A DNA stretch of 64,000 nucleotides, from NCBI GenBank assembly GCA_029258915.1, contig JAPDJU010000012.1:53149-117148 (forward strand), given 5' to 3'. Numbering within the stretch: the stretch's first letter is position 1; every line of letters begins with the position of its first letter. Shown here in pieces: positions 48,661-60,825 of the stretch. The notes under the pieces are model-generated. The model was given only the letters and a program-made list of their open reading frames with translations. It was not told where the DNA came from and did not search any database. Source of the stretch: Thermoproteota archaeon (lineage in GTDB: Archaea; Thermoproteota; Thermoprotei_A; EX4484-217-1). The position numbers and the translations under genes were made by a program.

Positions 48661-50460
48661 GTGTATTACATAATGTATATTAGTGAACTTAATGCTGGGA
48701 TTATGCGGGAACTTGTTTTAACAGCTTTAGGTAAATTAAAAGCTGATTTAGTTTTGAAAAATGCTTCTCTAGTTAACGTTTACACTTCTGAAGTTATTGA
48801 AAACATAAGTATTGGTATAAAAAATGGTAGAATCGCATATGTTGGTGAAAACATTAAACATTTAATAGGTTCTTCAACTCAGGTTATTGATGTTAAAGGA
48901 ATGTATGTTACCCCTGGTTTCATGGATTCTCATATTCATATTGAAAGTAGTATGTTAACTCCATTAGGATTTTCTGAAGCCGTACTACCTCATGGTACAA
49001 CAGCTGTTTTCGTGGATCCTCATGAAATAGCTAATGTTCTGGGTGTTAAAGGTGTTGAGTTTTTCATTAAAGAAGCATTGGAAGCCCCAATCAGAATTTT
49101 TATAAATGTTCCATCATGTGTTCCATCAACACCGGAGGATACCACTGGAGCCATCTTAGGATATAAGGAAGTTGAACATTTGCTTAAAAACCCGTATACC
49201 ATAGGGTTAGCTGAGGTAATGGATTTCTATGGTGTTTTAGCTTTAAGAGAAGATATTATTAGGAAAATTGAAGCTGCACATAAGTTAGGTAAGGTCGTGG
49301 ACGGACATGCACCAAGCCTTTCAGGTAAGTATCTTCAAGCATATATCGCTGCAGGAATATCCTCAGACCATGAGAGTATAAAAGCTGAAGAAGTTATTGA
49401 AAAAGCTAGGTTAGGAATGTATGTTATGCTTAGAGAAGGCAGTGCATGGAGAGATTTAGCTAAAACTGTAAAAGCAATTACTGAGGGAAAGATAGATACA
49501 CGAATGCTACTTTTAGCAAGTGATGATAGGAATCCTTATAATATAGTTCATGAAGGTCATATGGACTATCTTATTAGAAAAATTATTAGCCTCGGTGTAG
49601 ATCCTATTAAAGCTATTCAAATGGCAACGTTGAACATAGCTTTAAGGTTTAAAGTGGATGACCATTTAGGGGGAATAGCGCCGGGCAAATTAGCTGATAT
49701 GGTTGTTCTAGATAGTTTAGATAAGGTTAATGTAAAAATGGTTTTCATAGATGGTAAACTTTTAGCTAAAGAAGGTAAGCCATTATGGCATGTACCTGAA
49801 GGTTACAAAGCGCCTAAACACCTTTATGAAACAATTAATATTAAAAGAAAAATTTCTCCTGAAGACTTCAAAATAAAAGCTCCAATAGTAGAAGGCTCTG
49901 TTAAAGTTAAGGTTATAGGTATAGTTCCTGAAAAAGCTGTAACTAAAAAACTTATAATGAATATACATGTTAAAAACGGGTATGTGCTGTCTGAAATTAA
50001 AAGAGATATTTTAAAAATTGCAATGATTGAAAGGTATAGCGGTAATGGACGTGTAGGTGTGGGGTTAGTTCACGGATTCGGATTTAAATATGGAGCATTA
50101 GCCTCATCAATAGCTCACGATAGCCATAACATATTAATTGTCGGTGTAAGTGAAAAAGACATGGCAACTGCTGCTAATAAGGTAATAGAAATCGGTGGTG
50201 GAATAGTCTTCGCCGCCGACGGGAAAATAAGAGCAGCTGTAGAACTTCCTATTGCAGGCATTTTAAGTGACAAACCTGTGAAAGAAGTTGTAGAAGAATT
50301 AGAGAAACTAACTTTAGAAACAAAGAAAGCCGGCTCTAAACTTAGTGAACCATACATGACGCTTTCAATTTTAGGTTTAATTGTTATTCCAGAGTTAAGA
50401 ATAACTGATAAAGGATTATTTGATGTGGTAAATAATAAATTTACAAGTTTATTTGCATAA
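48661..50460 (+). CDS. ade: Adenine deaminase
   Basis: DSHIHIESS, DPHEIANV, PSCVP, DGHAP, SDHE, REGS, SDD and AHDSHN. Confidence 0.95.
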   Translation: MYYIMYISELNAGIMRELVLTALGKLKADLVLKNASLVNVYTSEVIENISIGIKNGRIAYVGENIKHLIGSSTQVIDVKGMYVTPGFMDSHIHIESSMLTPLGFSEAVLPHGTTAVFVDPHEIANVLGVKGVEFFIKEALEAPIRIFINVPSCVPSTPEDTTGAILGYKEVEHLLKNPYTIGLAEVMDFYGVLALREDIIRKIEAAHKLGKVVDGHAPSLSGKYLQAYIAAGISSDHESIKAEEVIEKARLGMYVMLREGSAWRDLAKTVKAITEGKIDTRMLLLASDDRNPYNIVHEGHMDYLIRKIISLGVDPIKAIQMATLNIALRFKVDDHLGGIAPGKLADMVVLDSLDKVNVKMVFIDGKLLAKEGKPLWHVPEGYKAPKHLYETINIKRKISPEDFKIKAPIVEGSVKVKVIGIVPEKAVTKKLIMNIHVKNGYVLSEIKRDILKIAMIERYSGNGRVGVGLVHGFGFKYGALASSIAHDSHNILIVGVSEKDMATAANKVIEIGGGIVFAADGKIRAAVELPIAGILSDKPVKEVVEELEKLTLETKKAGSKLSEPYMTLSILGLIVIPELRITDKGLFDVVNNKFTSLFA

Positions 50461-50474
50461 ACGGTGGTTAATCT

Positions 50475-51833
50475 ATGCTATTAGACTTAAAAATAGTTAA
50501 TGCTAAAATAGCTACTATTAGCGGTATTTACGAAGGGGCCATAGGTGTTTCTAAGGGTAAGATAAAAGCTATAGTTAAGAACGGAGATGTGTTGAAAGCT
50601 GAAAAACAAATAGATGCTAAAGGAAAACTTATTTTGCCAGGAGCTATAGACGTCCATGCACACATATATGACCCTAAATTTGTTCATAGAGAAGATTTTG
50701 AACATGGAACATTAGCTGCTATTTTTGGAGGAGTAACTACGGTTATAATTATGCCTTTAGACACTCACATAGACAATGTTAACATACTTAAGCACTATAT
50801 TGAGGTTGGTGAAAGAGAATCTTACACGGATTTCTCAATTCAAGGAGGCTTCGTTAAATCAGATAACATTTCCAATGTTGAAGAATTAGCTAAAAATGGT
50901 GTTAAAGCATTTAAAATGTTCACATGTAAACCATATATGGCTTCAGATTACGTATTTATTAGAATGCTTGAGTTAACTAGGAAACTGGACATTTTAATTA
51001 CAGTTCATGCTGAAGATGAAGCTATTTTAGAGCACAGTATTAGAAAGGCTTTAGAAACTGGACGGAAAGACCCAATAATACATCATATTTCAAGACCTCC
51101 TTTAGCTGAAAAAGCAGCTATAGAAAAACTTCTTACATACCTTGAATATATAAGTGGAAACATGCATTTATGCCATATTACGACAAGCTATGCTGTAAAA
51201 GCTATTGAAGAAGGGAAAAGGAAAGGATTAAACATATCTGCCGAAGTATGTACACATCATCTATTATTTACATATAATGATGCTGAAAAATGGGGTCCCT
51301 ATTTAAAAATGAACCCGCCGCTAAGATCAAGAGAACATGTAGAAGCCTTATGGAAGGGACTACAAAATGGAGTAATAGATACTGTAACCACAGATCATGC
51401 ACCAGGAAGCAGGGATGAAAAGGAAGTAGGATGGGAAGATATATGGAGGGCATGGGGTGGCGTTGCTGGAGTAGAAACTTTATTGCCAATAATGTTTACC
51501 TATGGTTTTAAGCGTAATATTTTAAGCTTAGAAGATATTATAAGGCTCTTATCTTTTAATCCCGCTAAGATATTTGGCTTACAGTTTAAAGGAGATATTA
51601 AGCCAGGTTTAGATGCTGATCTTCTAATAGTAGATCCCGGTTTTGCTAAGAAAGTTAAAGCCGAAGATTTACACTATAAGAATCCGTGGACACCTTATGA
51701 AGGTTTAAATCTTTATGGTTGGCCTGAAGTAGTTATCCTCAGAGGTAATGTTATCATTGAAAACAGTGAGCTTATAGAAGTTAAAGGTTTAGGCAGATTT
51801 ATTAAAGCAGCTAATGCATTTTCGAGAATATGA
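50475..51833 (+). CDS. Cyclic amidohydrolase (allantoinase/hydantoinase-like)
   Basis: DVHAH, GGVTT, AFKMF, VHAE, HLCH, KMNPPLR, TDHAP and AWGG. Confidence 0.85.
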   Translation: MLLDLKIVNAKIATISGIYEGAIGVSKGKIKAIVKNGDVLKAEKQIDAKGKLILPGAIDVHAHIYDPKFVHREDFEHGTLAAIFGGVTTVIIMPLDTHIDNVNILKHYIEVGERESYTDFSIQGGFVKSDNISNVEELAKNGVKAFKMFTCKPYMASDYVFIRMLELTRKLDILITVHAEDEAILEHSIRKALETGRKDPIIHHISRPPLAEKAAIEKLLTYLEYISGNMHLCHITTSYAVKAIEEGKRKGLNISAEVCTHHLLFTYNDAEKWGPYLKMNPPLRSREHVEALWKGLQNGVIDTVTTDHAPGSRDEKEVGWEDIWRAWGGVAGVETLLPIMFTYGFKRNILSLEDIIRLLSFNPAKIFGLQFKGDIKPGLDADLLIVDPGFAKKVKAEDLHYKNPWTPYEGLNLYGWPEVVILRGNVIIENSELIEVKGLGRFIKAANAFSRI

Positions 51834-51896
51834 GATTACTTGATGTGTTTATTAAAAAATATTTTATAGTTTGTTTGCAATTACTAACTGTTTGAG

Positions 51897-53072
51897 GTGT
51901 ATTGTTTAATGTTCTCTATAAGGTTTAGTCTACCAACAAAAATTGTTTTCGAAATAGGTTCTATATCTAGAGTTGGTTATGAGGTTGAAGGTTTAGGCAA
52001 GAAAGCGCTCATCGTTATAACAAGAGGAGGGTCGATGATAAAATTTGGTTACTTAGGTAATGTAAGGTTAAGCCTTGAAGCTAGAGGTATAAAATATGCT
52101 GTATACAATAATATCTCTTCTAATCCTAAAGCCGATGAAGTAGAAAAAGGAGTTGAATTTGCTGAAAAAGAGAAATGTGATTTTATCATAGGCTTAGGAG
52201 GCGGTAGCGCTATAGACGCTGCAAAAGCCATTGCTGCAACCCTTGCTTCAGGAAAACCTTTCATAAAATATCTTAGAAAGGAAAAAGAAATCTCAGCAGC
52301 ATACCCTATAGTAGCAATACCTACAACACATGGTACAGGTAGTGAAGTAGATAAATATGCCGTAGTAACCGATACCGAGAGAAAAGCAAAAATATCAATA
52401 ATTAGCTGCTACATCTATCCTAAGGTAGCAATATTAGATCCTGAAACAACAGTTACCTTACCTCCGCAGTTAACAGCTGCAACAGCTTTTGACGCATTAT
52501 CTCATGCTTTAGAAGCATATGTTAATAGAAGTACAAATAGTCTTGCAAGAATGTTTGCTGCAGAAGCTATCAAAAATATAGCTGAAAATATAGAACATGC
52601 AGTAAAACATGGAGTAAACATAACAATTAGAACTAAACTATTATGGGCAAGTATGTTAGCCGGGTTAGCAATAGACCTTGTAAGAACAGCTTTATGTCAT
52701 GCAATGGAACATCCCCTAAGTGCCTTCTATGGTCATGTACACCACGGTTTAGGATTATCAATACTCTTACCTGCATGGATCAAGTACACTTTAGAATCAG
52801 CTAAGAAAGATTTTGCAGAAATAGCGGAAATTATAGGGTTAAAAACAGAAGAATTAACTATAGAACAAGCAGCACAATCAGTGTATAACTACATTGTAGA
52901 TTTACGTAGAACCATAGGTTTAGACTTTAAACTTAGAGATCTAGGCGTTAAAGTAAAAGATGTAGATGCTATGGTCGAAAACGCCTTCACATATATGAAA
53001 CCCTTAATAGAAAACAATCCAAGAATACCTACAAGAGAGGAAATGAAGAATATCTATATGGAAGCATATTAG
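51897..53072 (+). CDS. Iron-containing alcohol dehydrogenase
   Basis: GLGGGSAIDAAK, PTTHGTGSE, DALSHALE, HAMEH and HGL. Confidence 0.92.
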   Translation: MYCLMFSIRFSLPTKIVFEIGSISRVGYEVEGLGKKALIVITRGGSMIKFGYLGNVRLSLEARGIKYAVYNNISSNPKADEVEKGVEFAEKEKCDFIIGLGGGSAIDAAKAIAATLASGKPFIKYLRKEKEISAAYPIVAIPTTHGTGSEVDKYAVVTDTERKAKISIISCYIYPKVAILDPETTVTLPPQLTAATAFDALSHALEAYVNRSTNSLARMFAAEAIKNIAENIEHAVKHGVNITIRTKLLWASMLAGLAIDLVRTALCHAMEHPLSAFYGHVHHGLGLSILLPAWIKYTLESAKKDFAEIAEIIGLKTEELTIEQAAQSVYNYIVDLRRTIGLDFKLRDLGVKVKDVDAMVENAFTYMKPLIENNPRIPTREEMKNIYMEAY

Positions 53073-53108: not shown

Positions 53109-53858
53109 ATGTATGAACAAAAGTTACTTACAACGAAAGCTACTAAATGGATTGCATTAGCTGGTAGTATTATATCTTCTATCGAAAATGCCTATGAAAT
53201 TCTAAGCATCAATAATACATATGTTGACAGTGTTTTTTATCAGTATGATGAATGGGTTCCCGGAAGCGAAATAGTAATTTCAGTAAGAGAATATGAGGGG
53301 AAAATAAAGGACTTTAAAGAACTACTTAACATTGATGAAAGCCTAGCAAAACCAATACTGACTAGCAGAGCATCACCTAACGCCACATATCACTGGAAGA
53401 CACTGTATAATAGAGTTTTAGAAATTTTCTTCAATAACATTGTGGATTATTTAAAATCAAAAACAATTATAACGAATTCTAAACGCACGGAATACATGTT
53501 AATAGTGTCTAAGAGAGGAGAAGGTGTAATCTTACAGGGAGATGTAAACAAGATAAGAATACCTAGAGTAAAGGCATGGCTAATGGCTCACACTCATCCA
53601 AGCCCTTACAGTTTCTTTTCAGCTAAGGATATTGAGACTACTAGAGATCTTTTTGCAAATCAAGGGCTTTTAAGTGCTGTGGTTACTTCAATATCTACCT
53701 GTGTACTTTATAGATGCAGTGACATGGATGTCAGTGATTATGAAAATCTTATAATTGTAGAACGTAAATTAGCTAAAGGCAAAATAGGTGATGCTCTAAA
53801 GGTAATGGGTAAATTAAAAAATGTCAAACTTATAGTTAAAGGGTTACCGGGTTTATAA
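53109..53858 (+). CDS. Protein with C-terminal JAB/MPN+ (JAMM) metalloprotease-like motif
   Basis: E(YML)...HTHPSPYSFFSAKD matches H-x-H-x7-S-x2-D. Confidence 0.6.
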   Translation: MYEQKLLTTKATKWIALAGSIISSIENAYEILSINNTYVDSVFYQYDEWVPGSEIVISVREYEGKIKDFKELLNIDESLAKPILTSRASPNATYHWKTLYNRVLEIFFNNIVDYLKSKTIITNSKRTEYMLIVSKRGEGVILQGDVNKIRIPRVKAWLMAHTHPSPYSFFSAKDIETTRDLFANQGLLSAVVTSISTCVLYRCSDMDVSDYENLIIVERKLAKGKIGDALKVMGKLKNVKLIVKGLPGL

Positions 53859-54629
53859 TGTGCTTAATGGTATAACTATTAGTCCTGCTTTCGGATGCTT
53901 TAATATTTTAACCTTAACTCCATAAGTTTTAGCGATATTTTCTTCTGTTAGAACATCTTGAGGTTTACCTATTGCTATGATTTTGCCTTCATGTAATAGT
54001 ACGAGTTTATCGGAGAAAATGGATGCTAACCTTAAATCATGCATGGTCATTACAGTCAATATGTTCTTAGTTTTACTTATCCTCCTTAAGATGCTGAGCA
54101 CCTCTAATTGATATTTTAAGTCTAAATGTACTGTAGGTTCATCTACAAGCAGTATTTTTGCTTGATGTGCAATAAGCTTAGCCATAATTATTCTTTGCAA
54201 TTCGCCATCGCTTAATTCCTCCATTTTTCTTTCAACAAGGTGTTTTGCATTAACCATTGTTAATGCTTCTTCAACTACAGCCAGATCTTCTTCAGTTTCC
54301 CATAGTCCTTTAGAATATGGGTATCTGCTTGTAAGTAAGAAATCTAAAACTGTTAAGTTAAAGCCTTTTGGAACTTCAAATAGTGAGTGAGCAAGTATTT
54401 TAGCTAATTCCTTATTGCTAATACTCCATAATTCACGGCCATTTAAGTATATAACTCCTTTATGCGGTTTTAAAAGCTTAGCTATGCATTTTAGAAGTGT
54501 TGTTTTACCCGCACCATTAGGGCCAATAATACCTACCATTTCTCCTTCTCTAAATTCTACTGAGACATTTTTTAATGCTTGTATTGAATCATAGTTAAAA
54601 CTTAAACTTGAAATCTTTATTTTAACCAT
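53853..54629 (-). CDS. Cobalamin/Fe-chelate ABC ATPase
   Basis: GPNGAGKT, LSDGELQR, DEPTVHLD and MHDL. Confidence 0.9.
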   Translation of the reverse strand: MVKIKISSLSFNYDSIQALKNVSVEFREGEMVGIIGPNGAGKTTLLKCIAKLLKPHKGVIYLNGRELWSISNKELAKILAHSLFEVPKGFNLTVLDFLLTSRYPYSKGLWETEEDLAVVEEALTMVNAKHLVERKMEELSDGELQRIIMAKLIAHQAKILLVDEPTVHLDLKYQLEVLSILRRISKTKNILTVMTMHDLRLASIFSDKLVLLHEGKIIAIGKPQDVLTEENIAKTYGVKVKILKHPKAGLIVIPLSTL

Positions 54630-54633
54630 GCTC

Positions 54634-55698
54634 CTAACCTCTCATTTTCTTTAACAGGAGATATATGAAGAATGGTGCACCAATAATGCTCATTAAAGCC
54701 CCTACAGGTAATTCACCTAATCCTAGTTGTATGGAGAAATACCTGACAATAATATCAGAGAAGCATAGAAGAGACCCTCCTATGAGAGCTGATGATGGTA
54801 TAAGAACTCTATGGTCGTTACCTACAATTAGCCTTGAAATATGGGGGACAACTAAACCTATAAACCCTATGAGACCTGAAACAGAAACTGCTACACCTGT
54901 AAGAAACGAAGTAGTTAGTATTGCTATATATCTTAGTACTTTAGGATTATAGCCTAGTTGGGAAGCATGTTCATCACCGAAAATTAGGGTGTTTAGTTTC
55001 TTAGAAATAACTAACGCAATGATAAAACCTACGGTAAATGATGTTGAAACTATGAAAACATGAGTTAAGACAATGTTCGAAAAACTTCCAAGTAGTAATA
55101 TGAGAAATGGTATGTTAAGTTTGAATTGGACAATGAAAGCGAGTAGTTGTGAAACTCCAGCAAACATAGCGGAAACAGCTATTCCAGCAAGAATTAGGCT
55201 TAAAGGTGTACCTCCAAGAAACTCAGAAATAGTCATAGTTACGAGTAATGCTGTTAGAGCTCCAGCAAACGATATTAACATTATGGCTGCAGAAGACATG
55301 TGAATTTTAGGGGAAATTATCAAGGAAATACAGAGAAACATTAAAGCACCCGAAGATAAGCCTAAAAGGAAAGGTTCTGCTAAAGGATTTCTAGTTGTTG
55401 TCTGTATGAGTACACCTGAAACTGCTAAGGAAGAACCAACCAAAATAGCAACCATAGTTCTTGAAAAACGTATACCTAAAACAACTTTCCCTAAAGAGCC
55501 CAAATCATAATTTGTAATACCTAGTTTAGATAGAAGAGCTAGTAAAACATCAATAAAACTTATATGTACAGACCCTACGGATAATGATAAGATAAAGACT
55601 GAAAAAGTAACTACTGTAAGTAAAGCTATTTTAATTACTATACGTTTTAATTTCAACCTATATTTAACATGAAGTCTATCAACACTATTATTTGTCAT
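54634..55698 (-). CDS. FecCD/BtuC family ABC permease
   Basis: RNPLAEPFLLG.SSGA, GLIGFIGLVVPH and GAPFF. Confidence 0.92.
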   Translation of the reverse strand: MTNNSVDRLHVKYRLKLKRIVIKIALLTVVTFSVFILSLSVGSVHISFIDVLLALLSKLGITNYDLGSLGKVVLGIRFSRTMVAILVGSSLAVSGVLIQTTTRNPLAEPFLLGLSSGALMFLCISLIISPKIHMSSAAIMLISFAGALTALLVTMTISEFLGGTPLSLILAGIAVSAMFAGVSQLLAFIVQFKLNIPFLILLLGSFSNIVLTHVFIVSTSFTVGFIIALVISKKLNTLIFGDEHASQLGYNPKVLRYIAILTTSFLTGVAVSVSGLIGFIGLVVPHISRLIVGNDHRVLIPSSALIGGSLLCFSDIIVRYFSIQLGLGELPVGALMSIIGAPFFIYLLLKKMRG

Positions 55699-55706
55699 TA
55701 AAGGTC

Positions 55707-56771
55707 TTAGCCTCCCATAGAGACAACATCGGGTCTTTTTTGTTCACCAAATATGTCTGAGTGAAGAATTTTAGCAAGTAGGAGAACAGCCTTAGCTACT
55801 CTAGGTCCGGGTCTACTTACGATATCATCTGCTTCACCAATTAATACGTAAACTTTGCCATTTTTAACAGCCGATGTTTCTGAAAGTTCAGAATTAACTA
55901 TTTCATTAATTACTGCTTTAGCGTCCTCAGTAGTACCCATGACTAGAGCAATAATCACTTCAGGGTCAGCACTAATTACCTCCTCTAAGCTAAGCTGTAT
56001 CCATCCATAATATTTTTCAGCAATATTTATACCGCCAGCTTTACGTATGATGTCATTAAGGAACTTACCAGAACCTACAGTCCATAATCCTAGTGATGGC
56101 GGACCTAACAGTACAAGAGTTTTCACCTTACCTGCTTCTTTCAGTTTTTCCTCTATGGCAATTAGCTGCACACTTATATTTTGGACAAGCTTTGCACCAT
56201 TATCTTCAACATTAAACACCTTAGTTACCAACATAATATCTAGTAGAATATCTTCTACAGTTGCTGCTGCTCCCCCCCTAATGAAAATCACGTTTAAACC
56301 TAGCTCCTCAAATTTGTCCTTGAACTTCATATGGGCATCGGAATCAGCTATGATAATGTCTGGAGCGAGTGCAACTATTTTTTCTAAATCAGGCGACCAG
56401 AACCCACCTATATCCTCTATAACACCTTTGTCTTTAAGCTCAATAACTTCTGGCGGGTAGTCGGAAAATGAGTCAACAGCGACAACCTTACTTCCCAAGT
56501 TGAGTGAGAAAAGTATTTCAGTTATAGACGGTGATAGCGAGATCACTCTTAGAGGTTCACTGCTTACTACTACTTGCCTACCTAGAGCATCAACAATCGT
56601 TAGAGGATAGATTTTTGGTGGAATTGTTTGAGTTAGAGTCTCGGTGACTGTGGTTGTGTAGGTTATAGTAACTGTAGCTGGAGTTAAAGCATGCCAGTAT
56701 AAGGTTAAGCTTCCTCCTAAGAGCAACACTATGAATATTGCAATAATCACGGATATGTTTTTAAGTCGCAT
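55707..56771 (-). CDS. BtuF-like substrate-binding protein (probably cobalamin)
   Basis: YPLTIVDALGR, RVISLSPSITEILF, SDYPP and SRPGPR, with an N-terminal anchor and Thr-rich linker. Confidence 0.8.
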   Translation of the reverse strand: MRLKNISVIIAIFIVLLLGGSLTLYWHALTPATVTITYTTTVTETLTQTIPPKIYPLTIVDALGRQVVVSSEPLRVISLSPSITEILFSLNLGSKVVAVDSFSDYPPEVIELKDKGVIEDIGGFWSPDLEKIVALAPDIIIADSDAHMKFKDKFEELGLNVIFIRGGAAATVEDILLDIMLVTKVFNVEDNGAKLVQNISVQLIAIEEKLKEAGKVKTLVLLGPPSLGLWTVGSGKFLNDIIRKAGGINIAEKYYGWIQLSLEEVISADPEVIIALVMGTTEDAKAVINEIVNSELSETSAVKNGKVYVLIGEADDIVSRPGPRVAKAVLLLAKILHSDIFGEQKRPDVVSMGG

Positions 56772-56877: not shown

Positions 56878-57870
56878 CTATCTATTTTTATAACAAGGAG
56901 AAGTTGTTTGGTATGTAGAATCATGGTATATTATTCTACCATTAAAGCCCTTTATTACTTCTTTTAGGTTTCTATCTAGATTTACACCCTTATCAAGCAT
57001 AATTAAAGGTTTTAAACCTATATCGTTAACTATAACTAAGAACTTAAAAACATCTAACCTAATGCCTCTATCGCCGTCTATTGATTTTATTTTCTTTACA
57101 GCATACTTTGTACCATTAATAGTCACGGTTACTATTTTATGTTCAATACCTGAAATACCAATAATCCTTTCCTCTTTTAAATTCAGAGTCTTAAGTTTAT
57201 CCTCAGTCCCTTTTGTTAAAAGAACTGCCAATTTAACGTATGTTTTTAAATACATAAGCCCTCTTCTGGAAATTTTAAAAATGCCTTTAACTCTCCTATC
57301 GTAATGAATGGTTTCAACCACAATTAGCTTTTTCTTAACGAGTTCTTCTAAGTATCTGGAAAGTCTAGGAGTATTGGTTCCTAAAATATTTAGCAAACGT
57401 GTTCGAGTTACGCCTTTTACCGAGGATTTAAGAATCTTAGCATAAATATCGTACTTACATACTTGGTTATTGCTAATGCCGGGCGGTATAGAAATATTAT
57501 TATCAAGTTTAACATTGTCTTCTTTTAAAGCCTTTTCTTTCAGTAAATAATCTAAATCCTTAAATGCCTCTAAGACTTCATAACCATATCGTGTTGTATG
57601 AAACATTTTTTTATTAGATGAAGTTTGTTTTAACATTCCCTTATTTAACATGGAGTTAATATATCTATATGCCTGCGTGTAGTTTAAGTTTGACTCACGC
57701 ATAATTTTTGTTATTGAAGCACCTTTAGCGCATGTATTTAATATGCATGTTACTATTTCTAAACGGCTTCTCCTTCTTCCATTATATGATACCATGATAG
57801 AATTGCATCTCACTAAGACCCTATTTACTGGAACATTATTAAATATTCCTAAGCTATAACAGTAAACCAT
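56878..57870 (-). CDS. Tandem winged-helix (HTH_45-like) regulator with an extra C-terminal domain
   Basis: RRSRLEIVTCIL..ITKIMRESNLNY..Y and a second KYDIYAKIL..TRTRL..RYLEEL repeat. Confidence 0.75.
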   Translation of the reverse strand: MVYCYSLGIFNNVPVNRVLVRCNSIMVSYNGRRRSRLEIVTCILNTCAKGASITKIMRESNLNYTQAYRYINSMLNKGMLKQTSSNKKMFHTTRYGYEVLEAFKDLDYLLKEKALKEDNVKLDNNISIPPGISNNQVCKYDIYAKILKSSVKGVTRTRLLNILGTNTPRLSRYLEELVKKKLIVVETIHYDRRVKGIFKISRRGLMYLKTYVKLAVLLTKGTEDKLKTLNLKEERIIGISGIEHKIVTVTINGTKYAVKKIKSIDGDRGIRLDVFKFLVIVNDIGLKPLIMLDKGVNLDRNLKEVIKGFNGRIIYHDSTYQTTSPCYKNR

Positions 57871-57936
57871 AACACGAATTCAATAAAATTTTTACAGACT
57901 TTAATATTTAAATTCTAGTTAGCAGTTTTCTCTAAC

Positions 57937-58938
57937 ATGATGATACCTATGTTTGAGAGAATAGTGTCAAGCCATGTTGGAAGTTTTCCTTTAAAACATA
58001 GCCGTGAAAACATTGTTAGATCGTTTAGAGATATGATCGACGTAGGTATAGATATTCCTCCATTCCCCCAAATGAGAAGCTTTATAGAAATGTATCTTAA
58101 GCCATTAGAGAACGCAGGGCTAATTAAAGCTATTGATCAAAGATATCTTACAAGTGAGAAAGCGTTGTTAAATGCTAAGATGGCTGAAATCGAAATTGAG
58201 GAGGCTACAATAATTTCTAAAGAAGCTGAAAAATTCGATATTCAAATACTTAGAGCTCCAATAACAGGTCCCTTTACATTGGCTTTGAGTATATATTTAA
58301 CTAAAGGCGAGAGCCTTTCGGCGACAGCATTAGCTCGGAAAAATATTGTGCTTACCTTTTTCAAGGAATATGTTAAGTCTATTGTTAAGAAAATGGTTAG
58401 TTTAAATTATAAGTTTATTGTGATAGATGACCCCATGTTGGCTAATGTTATAGGTAAGAGAATTATACTTTATGGATATAGCGAAGAAGAAATAATAGAC
58501 CTTTACAATGAAATATTTAAAGAAGCTGCAGACAGAATTACAGGAATACATGTCTGCGGTAGGCTTTCACCGAAATTAGTGAACATTTTAGCACAAATAA
58601 GTAGGTTAAATGTGCTAAACCATGAGTTTAAAGATAGCCCTGAAAACATGGCAGTTTTTTCTAAAGGACTGTTAGAAAAATATGATAAAATACTTAGCCC
58701 TGGTATAGTTAGTTCAAGGAATTTAGAAATTGAAAGTTTTGAGGAAACATATGGTCTTTTAAGGAATTTAATTAGCAAATTCGGTGATAGGGTAAATATT
58801 GTAACAGCTGATTGCGGATTTAAAGCATTAAAAATGCCAAACATCTCATATGAGAAAGCATATAATGTAGCTATAAGAAAACTTAAGCTCATAGTTGAAG
58901 CTGTAAGTAAAGCAAATAAGGAATTAACACCAGTTTAA
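57937..58938 (+). CDS. Core-domain-only (folate-independent) methionine synthase-like protein
   Basis: HVGSFP, TGPFTLA, IDDP and Zn ligands HVC..E..DCG. At 333 aa it lacks the MetE N-terminal barrel. Confidence 0.8.
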   Translation: MMIPMFERIVSSHVGSFPLKHSRENIVRSFRDMIDVGIDIPPFPQMRSFIEMYLKPLENAGLIKAIDQRYLTSEKALLNAKMAEIEIEEATIISKEAEKFDIQILRAPITGPFTLALSIYLTKGESLSATALARKNIVLTFFKEYVKSIVKKMVSLNYKFIVIDDPMLANVIGKRIILYGYSEEEIIDLYNEIFKEAADRITGIHVCGRLSPKLVNILAQISRLNVLNHEFKDSPENMAVFSKGLLEKYDKILSPGIVSSRNLEIESFEETYGLLRNLISKFGDRVNIVTADCGFKALKMPNISYEKAYNVAIRKLKLIVEAVSKANKELTPV

Positions 58939-58963
58939 CAAACAATGTAGTTAGGTTATTAAC

Positions 58964-59947
58964 ATGAGGGTGAAAGAACAGCTAAGACCATTTACGTTTA
59001 ACCGAGAACAGAAGATGTTTAAGATAGGTAACGTGGTTTTCGGGGGAGCACCTGGTGAAAGACCTGTAGTTCTTGTTGGTAGCCTTTTCTTCTTAGGCGA
59101 TAAAGCAGTTTCAAATCATAAGAAAGGAGTTTTTGATAAAAGTAAGACTAGAGAGAAAATAGATTTCGCTGAGAGAATAGCTGAAGGATATAATTTACAG
59201 TTTGCAATAGATTTAGTGGCGTACTCTCCTAAAGCAGCTGAAAAATATGTACAGTTTGTATGTGAAGTATCTAACGCTCCACTATTTCTTGATGGAATAG
59301 AGGAAGCTGTAAGGATAAGAATGTATAAAATATCTAATGAACTAGGTCTAGTTAGCAGGGTCATAGGAAATGCAATATATGTTCATAGCGGAGATGAAGA
59401 GTTAAAAGCATTAAAAGAAAACAAAATAGAAGCAGCTGTTTTAATGGCCTTTGACATAGCAAACCCTGCTGAAAGTCTAACACCAAATGACAAACTCAGA
59501 ATATTAAATAATGAGCTTTTACCTAAAGCTGAAAAAGCAGGATTAAGAAAACCGCTAGTTGATGTTGTAGTTTTAGACCCTGCATCGATTGCTATGAATG
59601 GACCCGCTATTTTAAAGATAAAGTCGGAGACAGGGTTACCGACCGGATGCGCACCAGCTAATGCGTTAGGTAGTGTTTCTAGGAAAAAATTTGGTGTTGA
59701 AGAGGCAATAGGCATTCATGCTGGTTCAGCTGCTTATCTACAATTTTTCGCATCAGATTTCATATTTTATGGTCCATTAAAAAGAATAAAGGATATAGCG
59801 CCAGCTGTTTCAATTATAGATTCTTATTTAGGCTATTTAGCAAAGCTTGAAGGAGTGAAAATACCTAGAGAACATCCATTCTATAAGGTTCTTAAGAAAG
59901 TACAAAAAGCGTTTACAGGGATAACTGCTTGGCAACCTATAACATAA
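58964..59947 (+). CDS. MtrH-family pterin:corrinoid methyltransferase
   Basis: F..EQK...IGNV.FGGAPGERP.VLVGSLF, GVFDK, PLFLD, PLVD, GLPTGCAPAN and DFIFYGP. Confidence 0.88.
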   Translation: MRVKEQLRPFTFNREQKMFKIGNVVFGGAPGERPVVLVGSLFFLGDKAVSNHKKGVFDKSKTREKIDFAERIAEGYNLQFAIDLVAYSPKAAEKYVQFVCEVSNAPLFLDGIEEAVRIRMYKISNELGLVSRVIGNAIYVHSGDEELKALKENKIEAAVLMAFDIANPAESLTPNDKLRILNNELLPKAEKAGLRKPLVDVVVLDPASIAMNGPAILKIKSETGLPTGCAPANALGSVSRKKFGVEEAIGIHAGSAAYLQFFASDFIFYGPLKRIKDIAPAVSIIDSYLGYLAKLEGVKIPREHPFYKVLKKVQKAFTGITAWQPIT

Positions 59948-60825
59948 GAGTAGTAGTTAATGAAAATAGATTGAAGAAGATAGCTGAAATTATTAGAGAT
60001 ATAGGTTTAAAAACAGTGTATGTTATTGAAGATAATGATCCTCAATTAAAGGCTTTAAAAGTAATCTATGAGAAAACAGGACATATAGGATATACTTGTC
60101 TATTAGCTGTAGCAAATGCGCTTATAAGTTATAAGCTTGCTGTTAAAGGTGAGAAGTATTGGACAGAGTTTTCGAAATACATGGCAAGAACAAGCCCAGA
60201 ATATAAAAGAGTTTTCGAAAACATTAAAGAATTCCTGGTTAAAACTAAGTTAAACGTTTTTGCATTAAATAGTAAAGTTAGTAGGCTTGACAAATTCTTG
60301 AAATCCCCTATAGCTGCTGAAATATATACAAGCCCTCAATTATATAAGCAGGACCTTGAAAAGCTAAGACACAGTATTGCTAAAGCGGTAAGCGCTGATC
60401 CTGACGCTAAAACCATAGTTTTCTCCGTAAAAATGTTCTACTATGCATATTGTTCTTCAACAGGTGAAAGACCAATGGTGCCTTACACAATACCGCTACC
60501 TGTAGATATAAGGATTGCTACTTTAACTATTTCATCAGGCATAATGGATGTGCCTAATATTGAAAGACTGAGAAATAAAGCATTATACTTGCTAGGAAGA
60601 AAAACTAACAATATAAGAAAAGTATGGTTTGAAGTTTCATCGCTGTCTGGAATCCCTTCCCTAAACATAGATTCTTTACTATGGCCTATAGGGGTATTTA
60701 TTACAAAGAATATACCGCAAAACATCTTAATTCATAAAACGTTAGAATATATGAAAAACATGGTTAAAAATGGAAGAGTTCACGTAGTTGAGAACCTTAT
60801 TTTAGAACTTTTAAAGCATCACTAA
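59929..60825 (+). CDS. AGOG-type 8-oxoguanine N-glycosylase/DNA lyase
   Basis: DPQ, ANALISYKL..GEKYW..F, KTIVFSVKM, PVDIR and IPSLNIDSLLW. Confidence 0.88.
   Translation: MATYNIRVVVNENRLKKIAEIIRDIGLKTVYVIEDNDPQLKALKVIYEKTGHIGYTCLLAVANALISYKLAVKGEKYWTEFSKYMARTSPEYKRVFENIKEFLVKTKLNVFALNSKVSRLDKFLKSPIAAEIYTSPQLYKQDLEKLRHSIAKAVSADPDAKTIVFSVKMFYYAYCSSTGERPMVPYTIPLPVDIRIATLTISSGIMDVPNIERLRNKALYLLGRKTNNIRKVWFEVSSLSGIPSLNIDSLLWPIGVFITKNIPQNILIHKTLEYMKNMVKNGRVHVVENLILELLKHH

Follow-up and report, generated by a model that had tools for sequence, protein, structure and literature searches.

A MetE-type core protein and an MtrH-family methyltransferase as predicted modules of a corrinoid-protein-dependent methionine synthase in Thermoproteota

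A Thermoproteota archaeon carries side by side a gene for a core MetE-type zinc methyltransferase of 333 aa (57937..58938, + strand; open reading frame (ORF) with a match to Pfam Meth_synt_2) and a gene for a stand-alone MtrH/MtgA-family methyltransferase of 327 aa (58964..59947, +; PF02007), and we consider it likely that the pair would supply the catalytic modules of a four-part methionine synthase that depends on a corrinoid protein and accepts swappable methyl-donor modules. Positions without a contig or locus label refer to the window, the whole stretch of 64,000 nt from contig JAPDJU010000012.1 that was analysed. On the basis of the observed gene content, residues, fold, linkage and phyletic pattern, we propose substrates, a direction of methyl flow and a carrier. 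The MtrH-family enzyme would pass the methyl group of a methyl-pterin to Co(I) of a small stand-alone corrinoid protein; as candidates for the pterin system, the genome encodes both a tetrahydromethanopterin-type Mch and a MetF/MetV reductase. The core protein would activate homocysteine on zinc (H205, C207, E230, C293) and take the methyl group from the methyl-Co(III) protein to form methionine, a RACo-type activase would reduce carrier in the oxidised Co(II) state, and the neighbouring BtuFCD-like importer would supply the cobamide that the organism cannot make. In the family as a whole, homocysteine module and carrier would stay the same and the donor would be exchangeable, being either MtrH (methyl-pterin) or an MttB-family enzyme (methylated amine). 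A preliminary description of this DNA had called the arrangement a 'disassembled MetH', and this logic stands in that linkage and phyletic pattern place the pair within a conserved corrinoid methyl-transfer system. The MetE barrel with zinc ligands and the short distance to the MtrH homolog that it had reported were borne out by the ORFs, the motifs and the spacer: the core gene ends in TAA (58936-58938), and the MtrH gene starts with ATG at 58964 after 25 nt (58939..58963, +, read directly from the sequence). The two genes are probably co-transcribed.

The core protein matches Pfam Meth_synt_2 (PF01717) marginally (22.1 bits, cut-off 21) and stays far below the cut-offs of the NCBIfam methionine synthase models, with scores of 70.7 against 387, 64.7 against 258 and 48.6 against 406. 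The second of these was obtained on NF002119, which we take, from model length and name, to represent the MesA family, and the third on split-type NF003317; the criterion for MesA is the NF002119 cut-off or at least 174 bits to METE_METTM, of which NF002119 alone was scored here. Across 33 aligned family members, S16, Q45, D164, H205, C207, E230 and C293 are invariant. The zinc motif is formed by H205-V-C207, E230 and D292-C293-G294, while S16 lies in GSFP, D164 in D-D/E-P, and Q45 stands where MetE has Glu. Searched against the PDB, a profile of the family hits T. maritima MetE in its C-terminal domain (E 4e-12), where GSFP, the Q-for-E position, DEP, HxC, E and DCG align with the homocysteine- and zinc-binding residues. 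Comparison by hhalign with a MesA-type set of eight proteins at or near the model cut-off (3/8 above it) gave a probability of 99.9% (23% identity) and aligned the same functional residues. An AlphaFold model of the core protein (predicted local distance difference test 95.3, predicted template modelling score 0.93) retrieved with Foldseek first MetE structures (template modelling (TM) score ~0.70), then core-type 3rpd and 1ypx, and then MtaA and UroD. Hence, because functional residues, profiles and fold agree, the core protein is a MetE-type enzyme despite the failed models, and is predicted to be a methyl-corrinoid-protein:homocysteine methyltransferase. It is very unlikely that it instead methylates another thiol or nucleophile as a corrinoid-dependent methyltransferase. 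The marginal Meth_synt_2 match, the failure to pass any curated methionine synthase model and the fold shared with MtaA-type thiol methyltransferases (4ay7, TM 0.63) would suit such an enzyme, but the Ser/Gln/Asp set that binds the amino-acid end of homocysteine is invariant, the best fold matches are MetE structures, and the gene is both complementary to split MetE and the sole methionine-synthase candidate of the genome. Price et al. reported the Ser/Gln/Asp homocysteine-binding pattern for MesA and MesC (PMC7857596).

Among 1.84 billion cluster representatives the family has 159 matches at E <= 1e-3 and 37 at E <= 1e-30, and its closest members matched no methionine synthase model at 1e-30. 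In a FastTree phylogeny of 95 relatives it forms its own clade, apart from the NF002119-like and NF004712-like groups. Named members belong to Desulfurococcaceae, Ignisphaera, Methanomethylicia and "Thermoprotei", and the few names obtained by cluster look-up for the adjoining clades are Bathyarchaeota, Heimdallarchaeota, Methanofastidiosia and Nanoarchaeota. These core proteins make up a small, distinct family that falls outside the curated MesA-type model and has conserved zinc and homocysteine residues.

Seven families were each searched for in one sample of 151 genomes of the same class. The core protein was found in 45 genomes, a B12-binding_2 corrinoid protein in 44, RACo in 42, MtrH in 37, CdhD in 17 and MttB in 15, and comparison of the genome handles showed that the last five are all nested in the 45 core genomes, with 0/106 in the others. 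By coordinates, MtrH lies <10 kb from the core gene in 20/37 genomes, and the corrinoid protein within ~5 kb of it in 25/44. Eight core genomes lack MtrH: seven of them have MttB (six beside the core and corrinoid protein genes), and the eighth is a fragmentary match. Split MetE (PF08267) is present in 94/151 genomes, comprising 90/106 without the core gene and 4/45 with it; 41 genomes thus have the core only, 90 split MetE only, 4 both and 16 neither. CdhD, which marks the corrinoid iron-sulfur protein (CoFeSP), is lacking in 28/45 core genomes. Moreover, six complete one-contig genomes (G019, G032, G039, G052, G074 and G139) have a single corrinoid protein, RACo and MtrH clustered with the core gene and have no MttB, and from the parts present the only transfer possible in them is that from methyl-pterin to homocysteine. 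The pattern spans 6/16 sampled families.

Two observations on individual genes came out of the same sample. An MttB-family gene of one Thermoproteota genome (G128:C4:37292-38719) has a single in-frame TAG; an in-frame TAG is a hallmark of pyrrolysine-type trimethylamine methyltransferases, and this gene could be of that type, or it could reflect an error or a pseudogene. Six RACo matches, whose frames are of full length otherwise, contain one in-frame stop each, TAA in G094:C9, G041:C1, G045:C2, G037:C51 and G108:C11 and TGA in G067:C7, which could be due to decay, recoding or assembly error.

The neighbourhoods of the core gene point the same way. A scan of one genome per species yielded 80 loci with the core gene, for which flanks of at most 6 kb were fetched, so that only 44/80 loci have at least 5 kb on both sides; partners were tallied by BLAST of the locus ORFs, and Pfam scans of representatives agree with the tallies. 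A corrinoid protein lies in the flanks of 38 loci, RACo in 37, MtrH in 22, MttB in 11 and MTHFR in 4, and at least one of corrinoid protein, RACo, MtrH and MttB is found in 51/80. In one architecture (a), genes for MtrH, RACo and the corrinoid protein accompany a core gene that is set off from them; this arrangement occurs in two complete Thermogladius chromosomes (L031, L039), in many Desulfurococcales metagenome-assembled genomes and in genomes G019, G139 and G002, and in some clusters an MTHFR gene stands beside MtrH (L022 in G108, L027, L049). A second architecture (b) consists of core, corrinoid protein and MttB genes with or without RACo, and a third (c) of MtrH, core, URO-D-like and corrinoid protein genes. 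The close relatives at L016-L018, and G004, have the order core-RACo-MtrH-AGOG with the divergent regulator kept, and the exact order of the window, importer included, is found in L014 (70% identity) and in G014 of the same genus. Conservation of the pair, which had been named as a check on the preliminary description, therefore gives a divided answer: adjacency of core and MtrH at <200 bp, as in the window, was found in 2/80 loci, but linkage within the flank (22/80) and co-occurrence by genome (37/37 MtrH genomes carry the core gene) are strong. The tight adjacency in the window is an exception, and looks like the local loss of a RACo gene from between the pair.

The MtrH homolog covers PF02007 over its full length (173.8 bits, profile positions 1-297 of 299) and is the only PF02007 match in the genome. 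It scores below the cut-offs of the NCBIfam MtrH-family model (261.8, cut-off 287), the MtgA equivalog NF047990 (176.2 against 550) and the true-mtrH equivalog TIGR01114 (159.5 against 271.4). Its best solved relatives are 8z9u_B, deposited as an MtrH subunit (E 4e-47), and 6sj8 (E 1.5e-46), the methylcorrinoid:tetrahydrofolate methyltransferase (MtgA) of D. hafniense, and MtrH of the Mtr complex (9qtp) is more distant (E 3.4e-34). We predict it to be a methyl-pterin:corrinoid-protein methyltransferase. The same enzyme might also serve a catabolic hub, in which MttB and URO-D-like enzymes load the carriers, MtrH delivers the methyl groups to a pterin for oxidation or acetyl-CoA, and the core protein is a minor outlet that adjoins MtrH through a shared carrier. 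The genome has an MttB-family gene (289 bits) and two URO-D-like genes elsewhere together with the Wood-Ljungdahl pathway, the MtrH homolog is as close to the D. hafniense enzyme as to any solved MtrH, and published mtrH-mttB-corrinoid clusters have been read in this way (PMC9723716, PMC7886697). Nevertheless, MtrH adjoins a homocysteine enzyme rather than a donor methyltransferase, and 22 core genomes with MtrH but without MttB have no enzyme to feed such a hub, barring two URO-D-like cases. MTHFR, expected if methyl-pterin is made for a core/MtrH system, lies inside the cluster in 4/80 loci, and the near-exclusion of core and split MetE would be left unexplained. Thus we regard the catabolic hub as unlikely.

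The remainder of the genome (1.6 Mb in 15 contigs, 99.66% complete) was searched for carriers, an activase and competing enzymes. The core gene is its only PF01717 match. Meth_synt_1 (PF08267), the N-terminal domain of split MetE, has no match in the genome at E <= 0.1; profile searches found no S-methyl_trans, the homocysteine domain of MetH, and neither MtrA nor methyl-coenzyme M reductase (MCR) was found; Pterin_bind gave a weak and unrelated match only (53.9 bits in a 536-aa frame). Split MetE and a remnant of methanogen Mtr were rejected because Meth_synt_1, MtrA and MCR were not found, and MetH or a split MetH for want of S-methyl_trans in the genome, so that the system would function like MetH but is not a member of that family. 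The earlier suggestion of an apparent non-methanogen agrees with the searches for MCR and MtrA in this nearly complete genome, and the N-terminal partner that would have turned the core protein into half of a split MetE was looked for genome-wide and not found. Of the genes proposed for a genome-wide search in the preliminary description, MtrA, the MetH domain and a second MetE-like gene were not found, but corrinoid proteins were: two stand-alone proteins with B12-binding_2 and B12-binding domains, on contigs C3 (210 aa) and C9 (234 aa) and both with DxHxxG, as well as CdhD/CdhE of CoFeSP. Further B12-binding matches are one B12-binding radical-SAM protein (Pfam), three long open frames and one weak match. 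The genome also encodes one RACo-type activase, the MttB-family gene, Mch and an S-adenosylhomocysteine hydrolase, whose presence means that homocysteine is produced.

In this inventory a two-enzyme shuttle on free imported cobalamin without any protein carrier, as had been proposed from the window, is highly improbable. Characterised core synthases do use free methylcobalamin in vitro (PMC7005905), the importer adjoins the pair, and no carrier gene lies in the window. However, the Michaelis constant (Km) of one such characterised enzyme for methylcobalamin, ~240 uM, was judged unphysiological by the authors of that study, and the genome has two DxHxxG corrinoid proteins, CoFeSP and RACo. Moreover, a corrinoid protein is present in 44/45 core genomes against 0/106 others, and the idea is countered by the neighbourhoods too, with a corrinoid protein near the core gene in 38/80 loci and RACo in 37/80.

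Under the reading with a protein carrier, the corrinoid protein on contig C3 is the likeliest candidate for the carrier in this organism, with CoFeSP and the C9 protein as alternatives; C3 is preferred because its type is the only PF02607 corrinoid protein of three close relatives. In a tree of corrinoid proteins C3 groups with high support (100/100) with the only corrinoid protein of each of G004, G011 and G014, and architecture-specific clades are well supported whereas deep nodes are weak (58/67). A conserved 352-aa protein without a Pfam match adjoins the C3 corrinoid protein (L010:8975-10033, -), as it also does in G004, G011 and G017; it is URO-D-like by language-model features, is without the HxC zinc motif, and may be a new substrate-specific corrinoid methyltransferase. 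The two URO-D-like genes of the genome adjoin corrinoid proteins. The one on C9 (L009:6526-7119, followed by a 550-nt gap to 7668) is a 197-aa frame to which relatives are matched in two separated pieces, so that a frameshift or a wrongly set start is possible. On its far side the C9 corrinoid protein is flanked by a gene for a SAM-dependent methyltransferase.

The same chemistry could also run on CoFeSP, with the MtrH homolog as methyl-pterin:CoFeSP methyltransferase of the Wood-Ljungdahl pathway. CdhD/CdhE are encoded in a Wood-Ljungdahl cluster with acetyl-CoA synthase (ACS), CooC/CooT, HdrA/MvhD-like genes and MetV/MetF, and the Pterin_bind match is weak, so that an AcsE-type methyltransferase is not evident. 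CoFeSP is present in 3/4 other sampled genomes of the same family (f1) and in 8/9 genomes of family f12, the RACo of the genome is of the high-scoring type that adjoins CdhDE in other genomes, and in G008 a second, weaker core-like gene directly follows CdhDE. On the other hand, a small corrinoid protein and RACo, along with MtrH or MttB, are retained in the 28/45 core genomes without CdhD. In 19/20 linked cases the MtrH that is joined to small corrinoid proteins is of the type seen in the window (Pfam 85-191 bits), and it is the high-scoring type (250-299 bits) that occurs mostly in CdhDE genomes (10/14). The pair is also ~90 kb and one contig away from the CoFeSP cluster. Taken together, CoFeSP seems a rather improbable carrier for the pair, although in this genome it is a genuine alternative. 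The cluster itself, at contig C5:16.6-31 kb (locus L096), includes a 733-aa ACS and a NiFe hydrogenase. The genome is Desulfurococcales-like by its nearest named relatives, and DNA of the locus occurs in hydrothermal vent and sediment metagenomes; with the Wood-Ljungdahl cluster, Mch elsewhere and no MCR found, an acetogen-like or methyl-oxidising vent archaeon is possible.

Several results weigh against the four-part, carrier-dependent synthase. The fetched flanks contain no partner gene in 29/80 loci, and the pair itself has neither a corrinoid protein nor RACo linked to it in the present genome. The C3 corrinoid protein adjoins a URO-D-like gene and not the pair, and neither it nor the C9 protein belongs to the clade of core/MtrH-linked carriers in a tree whose deep nodes have 58/67 support. 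Because the genomes are kin, fewer independent events lie behind the nested counts than the numbers suggest, and in the nine f12 genomes MtrH is unlinked to the core gene and CoFeSP is present in 8/9. MtrH could run in the MtgA direction, from methyl-corrinoid to pterin, because MttB, URO-D-like genes and the Wood-Ljungdahl pathway are present. Finally, the HcyBio gene for de novo homocysteine synthesis was not found in the genome, and hence the core enzyme may only recycle homocysteine in the S-adenosylmethionine (SAM) cycle rather than serve net synthesis.

The nearest known enzymes are other core methionine synthases. MesA of methanogens is a methylcobalamin:homocysteine methyltransferase (Schroeder & Thauer 1999, cited in PMC7005905), and the use of methylcorrinoids in vitro has been established for core synthases from a methanogen and from Dehalococcoides; because the Km for free methylcobalamin is high, the authors suggested that the methyl group really comes from a corrinoid protein (PMC7005905). 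The families MesA-D were set up by Price et al. (2021), who expected the methyl donor to be MtrA or CoFeSP and whose text makes no mention of MtrH or Desulfurococcales (PMC7857596). Like MesA, the present protein is a single MetE-type barrel of ~310-330 aa without a folate-binding domain, with the HVCG...HEF...DCG zinc motif and the Ser/Gln/Asp homocysteine triad, but the two share 23% identity at profile level, lie in separate clades, and the present protein scores 64.7/258 on the MesA-type model; furthermore, it belongs to non-methanogens without MtrA and MCR, where a stand-alone corrinoid protein, served by a RACo of its own, would be the carrier. MesB and MesC (Price et al. 2021; Deobald et al. 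2020) are core synthases that likewise occur in anaerobes and for which a corrinoid protein has been predicted as the methyl source, and the genome of the window has a Wood-Ljungdahl CoFeSP as their hosts do. They are confined to CoFeSP organisms, whereas the core family occurs mostly without CoFeSP (28/45 genomes; 17/45 with it), has Cys where most MesC have His, and has its genes clustered with those for a small corrinoid protein, RACo and MtrH instead of acsCD, a separation that relies on published descriptions of MesB and MesC. Split MetE, known from thermophilic archaea (Price et al. 2021), has a catalytic protein that resembles the core protein in size and fold, and it occupies the same niche in sister lineages. 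It needs a Meth_synt_1 partner and no B12, while the genome has no such partner, and the two systems nearly exclude each other in the 151 genomes.

The four functions of MetH, and of the split MetH or MtgBCDE system of Phaeobacter and Ruegeria (PMC12478193), namely pterin methyltransferase, B12 carrier, homocysteine methyltransferase and reductive reactivation, are the ones proposed here. Bacterial MtgBCDE links betaine demethylation and methionine synthesis via one cobalamin protein (PMC12478193), and also takes an MttB-family betaine methyltransferase as donor, which parallels the core-corrinoid protein-MttB clusters. MtgBCDE is the closest functional parallel among the published systems, but is built from MetH-type and Bhmt-type modules, and no catalytic module is homologous: in the present archaeal, anaerobic and thermophilic setting a MetE-type barrel replaces S-methyl_trans/Bhmt, an MtrH-family protein replaces Pterin_bind, and ATP-dependent reactivation of RACo type replaces the SAM-dependent domain. 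With MtgA-MtgB-MtgC and Mto-type systems the arrangement shares an MtrH-family enzyme, a RamA/RACo activase and a small corrinoid protein with DxHxxG. In those catabolic systems the methyl group goes to the pterin, whereas here the constant partner is a homocysteine-type zinc enzyme and most core genomes have no substrate-demethylating enzyme. A single sentence of Loh et al. mentions co-localisation of the CoP-MtrH genes of "Ca. Methanomethylicus" with a metE homologue and considers an anabolic function possible (PMC7886697), and mtrH-mttB-corrinoid clusters of Culexarchaeia were read as quaternary-amine catabolism (PMC9723716). No description of the archaeal cluster as a methionine synthase was found in the literature covered; Supplementary Figure S4 of PMC7886697 and the S1 Table of Price et al., which lie beyond that coverage, may bear on novelty.

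What appears to be new, judged from genomes and models, is a separate family of core synthases that would have a carrier and an activase of its own as well as an exchangeable donor, and would reproduce the logic of MetH from non-homologous parts; the comparative evidence for it is strong. It is possible, though we put it forward tentatively, that this is a fifth, as yet unnamed core-synthase family and a plug-and-play corrinoid hub in Thermoproteota, that it displaced split MetE in Desulfurococcales-like lineages, and that methionine there depends on import. If the reading is right, the physiological methyl-donor chain of a core methionine synthase would be named, the methionine-synthase gap would be filled in the 41/45 core genomes without split MetE, and the function of MetH would have been reinvented from non-homologous parts, with the MttB-fed version as a B12-dependent analogue of betaine-homocysteine methyltransferase. 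The methionine supply of these hyperthermophiles would then depend on imported cobamides, and such a cobamide need for methionine and the SAM cycle in vent and hot-spring archaea would bear on their cultivation and on B12 cross-feeding. Stand-alone mtrH and corrinoid gene pairs in uncultured archaea would not always mean methylotrophy or methanogenesis. Cultured Thermogladius has the full cluster (L031, L039), and the idea is therefore testable.

Upstream of the core gene, a divergent intergenic region (57871..57936, read directly from the sequence) is A/T-rich and holds a putative TATA-like TTTAATATTTAAA ~35 nt before the core ATG, as picked out by eye. Between it and the importer lies a gene for a winged-helix regulator of 330 aa (56878..57870, -; HTH_45, Sso10a-family and TrmB-like by family models), divergent from the core gene, and this position is common to 5/5 of the closest loci (L014-L018). 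The importer, which the preliminary description had already placed nearby and divergent, consists of three genes on the minus strand. They encode a Peripla_BP_2 binding protein of a BtuF/FecB-class ABC importer (55707..56771, -; PF01497 118 bits, BtuF equivalog 80.6, cut-off 234), a BtuC-like permease of the FecCD family (54634..55698, -; PF01032 266 bits, BtuC equivalog 192, cut-off 334) and an ABC ATPase (53853..54629, -; PF00005 99.5 bits; corrinoid ABC ATPase model 190, cut-off 537; BtuD equivalog 130.1, cut-off 281). The three reach the Pfam class FecCD, Peripla_BP_2 and ABC_tran, and all BtuC/F/D equivalog scores stay below cut-off. CbiC and CobS were not found in the genome, and therefore complete cobamides must be imported; because of this lack, and of the context, a cobamide is a plausible substrate of the importer and its link to the pair is plausible. 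In two other genomes (L100 in G004, L102 in G017) the corrinoid protein gene divergently adjoins a second Peripla_BP_2/FecCD/ABC importer, whose binding protein has 27% identity to that of the window, and this is a second, independent link of the system to a B12-class importer.

Within the window, with G+C of ~35%, profile searches found no mtr gene besides the MtrH homolog and no corrinoid protein, as had been stated before, and an Rfam scan of the whole window gave no match, hence no riboswitch or RNA gene. Downstream of mtrH lies a gene for an AGOG-type 8-oxoguanine DNA glycosylase (59929-60825, +); its longest frame shares 19 nt with the end of mtrH, and the AGOG gene directly adjoins stand-alone mtrH in several Desulfurococcales-like families (window, L014, L016-L018, L022, L027, L049, L106). 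Together with the Sso10a-type and TrmB-type proteins, AGOG identifies the organism as archaeal. Upstream of the importer, 48661-53072 (+) encodes an adenine deaminase, which passes its equivalog, a dihydroorotase/allantoinase/hydantoinase-like amidohydrolase and an iron alcohol dehydrogenase, a unit that may serve purine or pyrimidine salvage or degradation. Elsewhere in the genome, a VWA-domain protein on contig C5 (111473-113314; L094:10474-12315), encoded next to a MoxR ATPase gene, has an intein-splicing match of 24.4 bits, below the cut-off.

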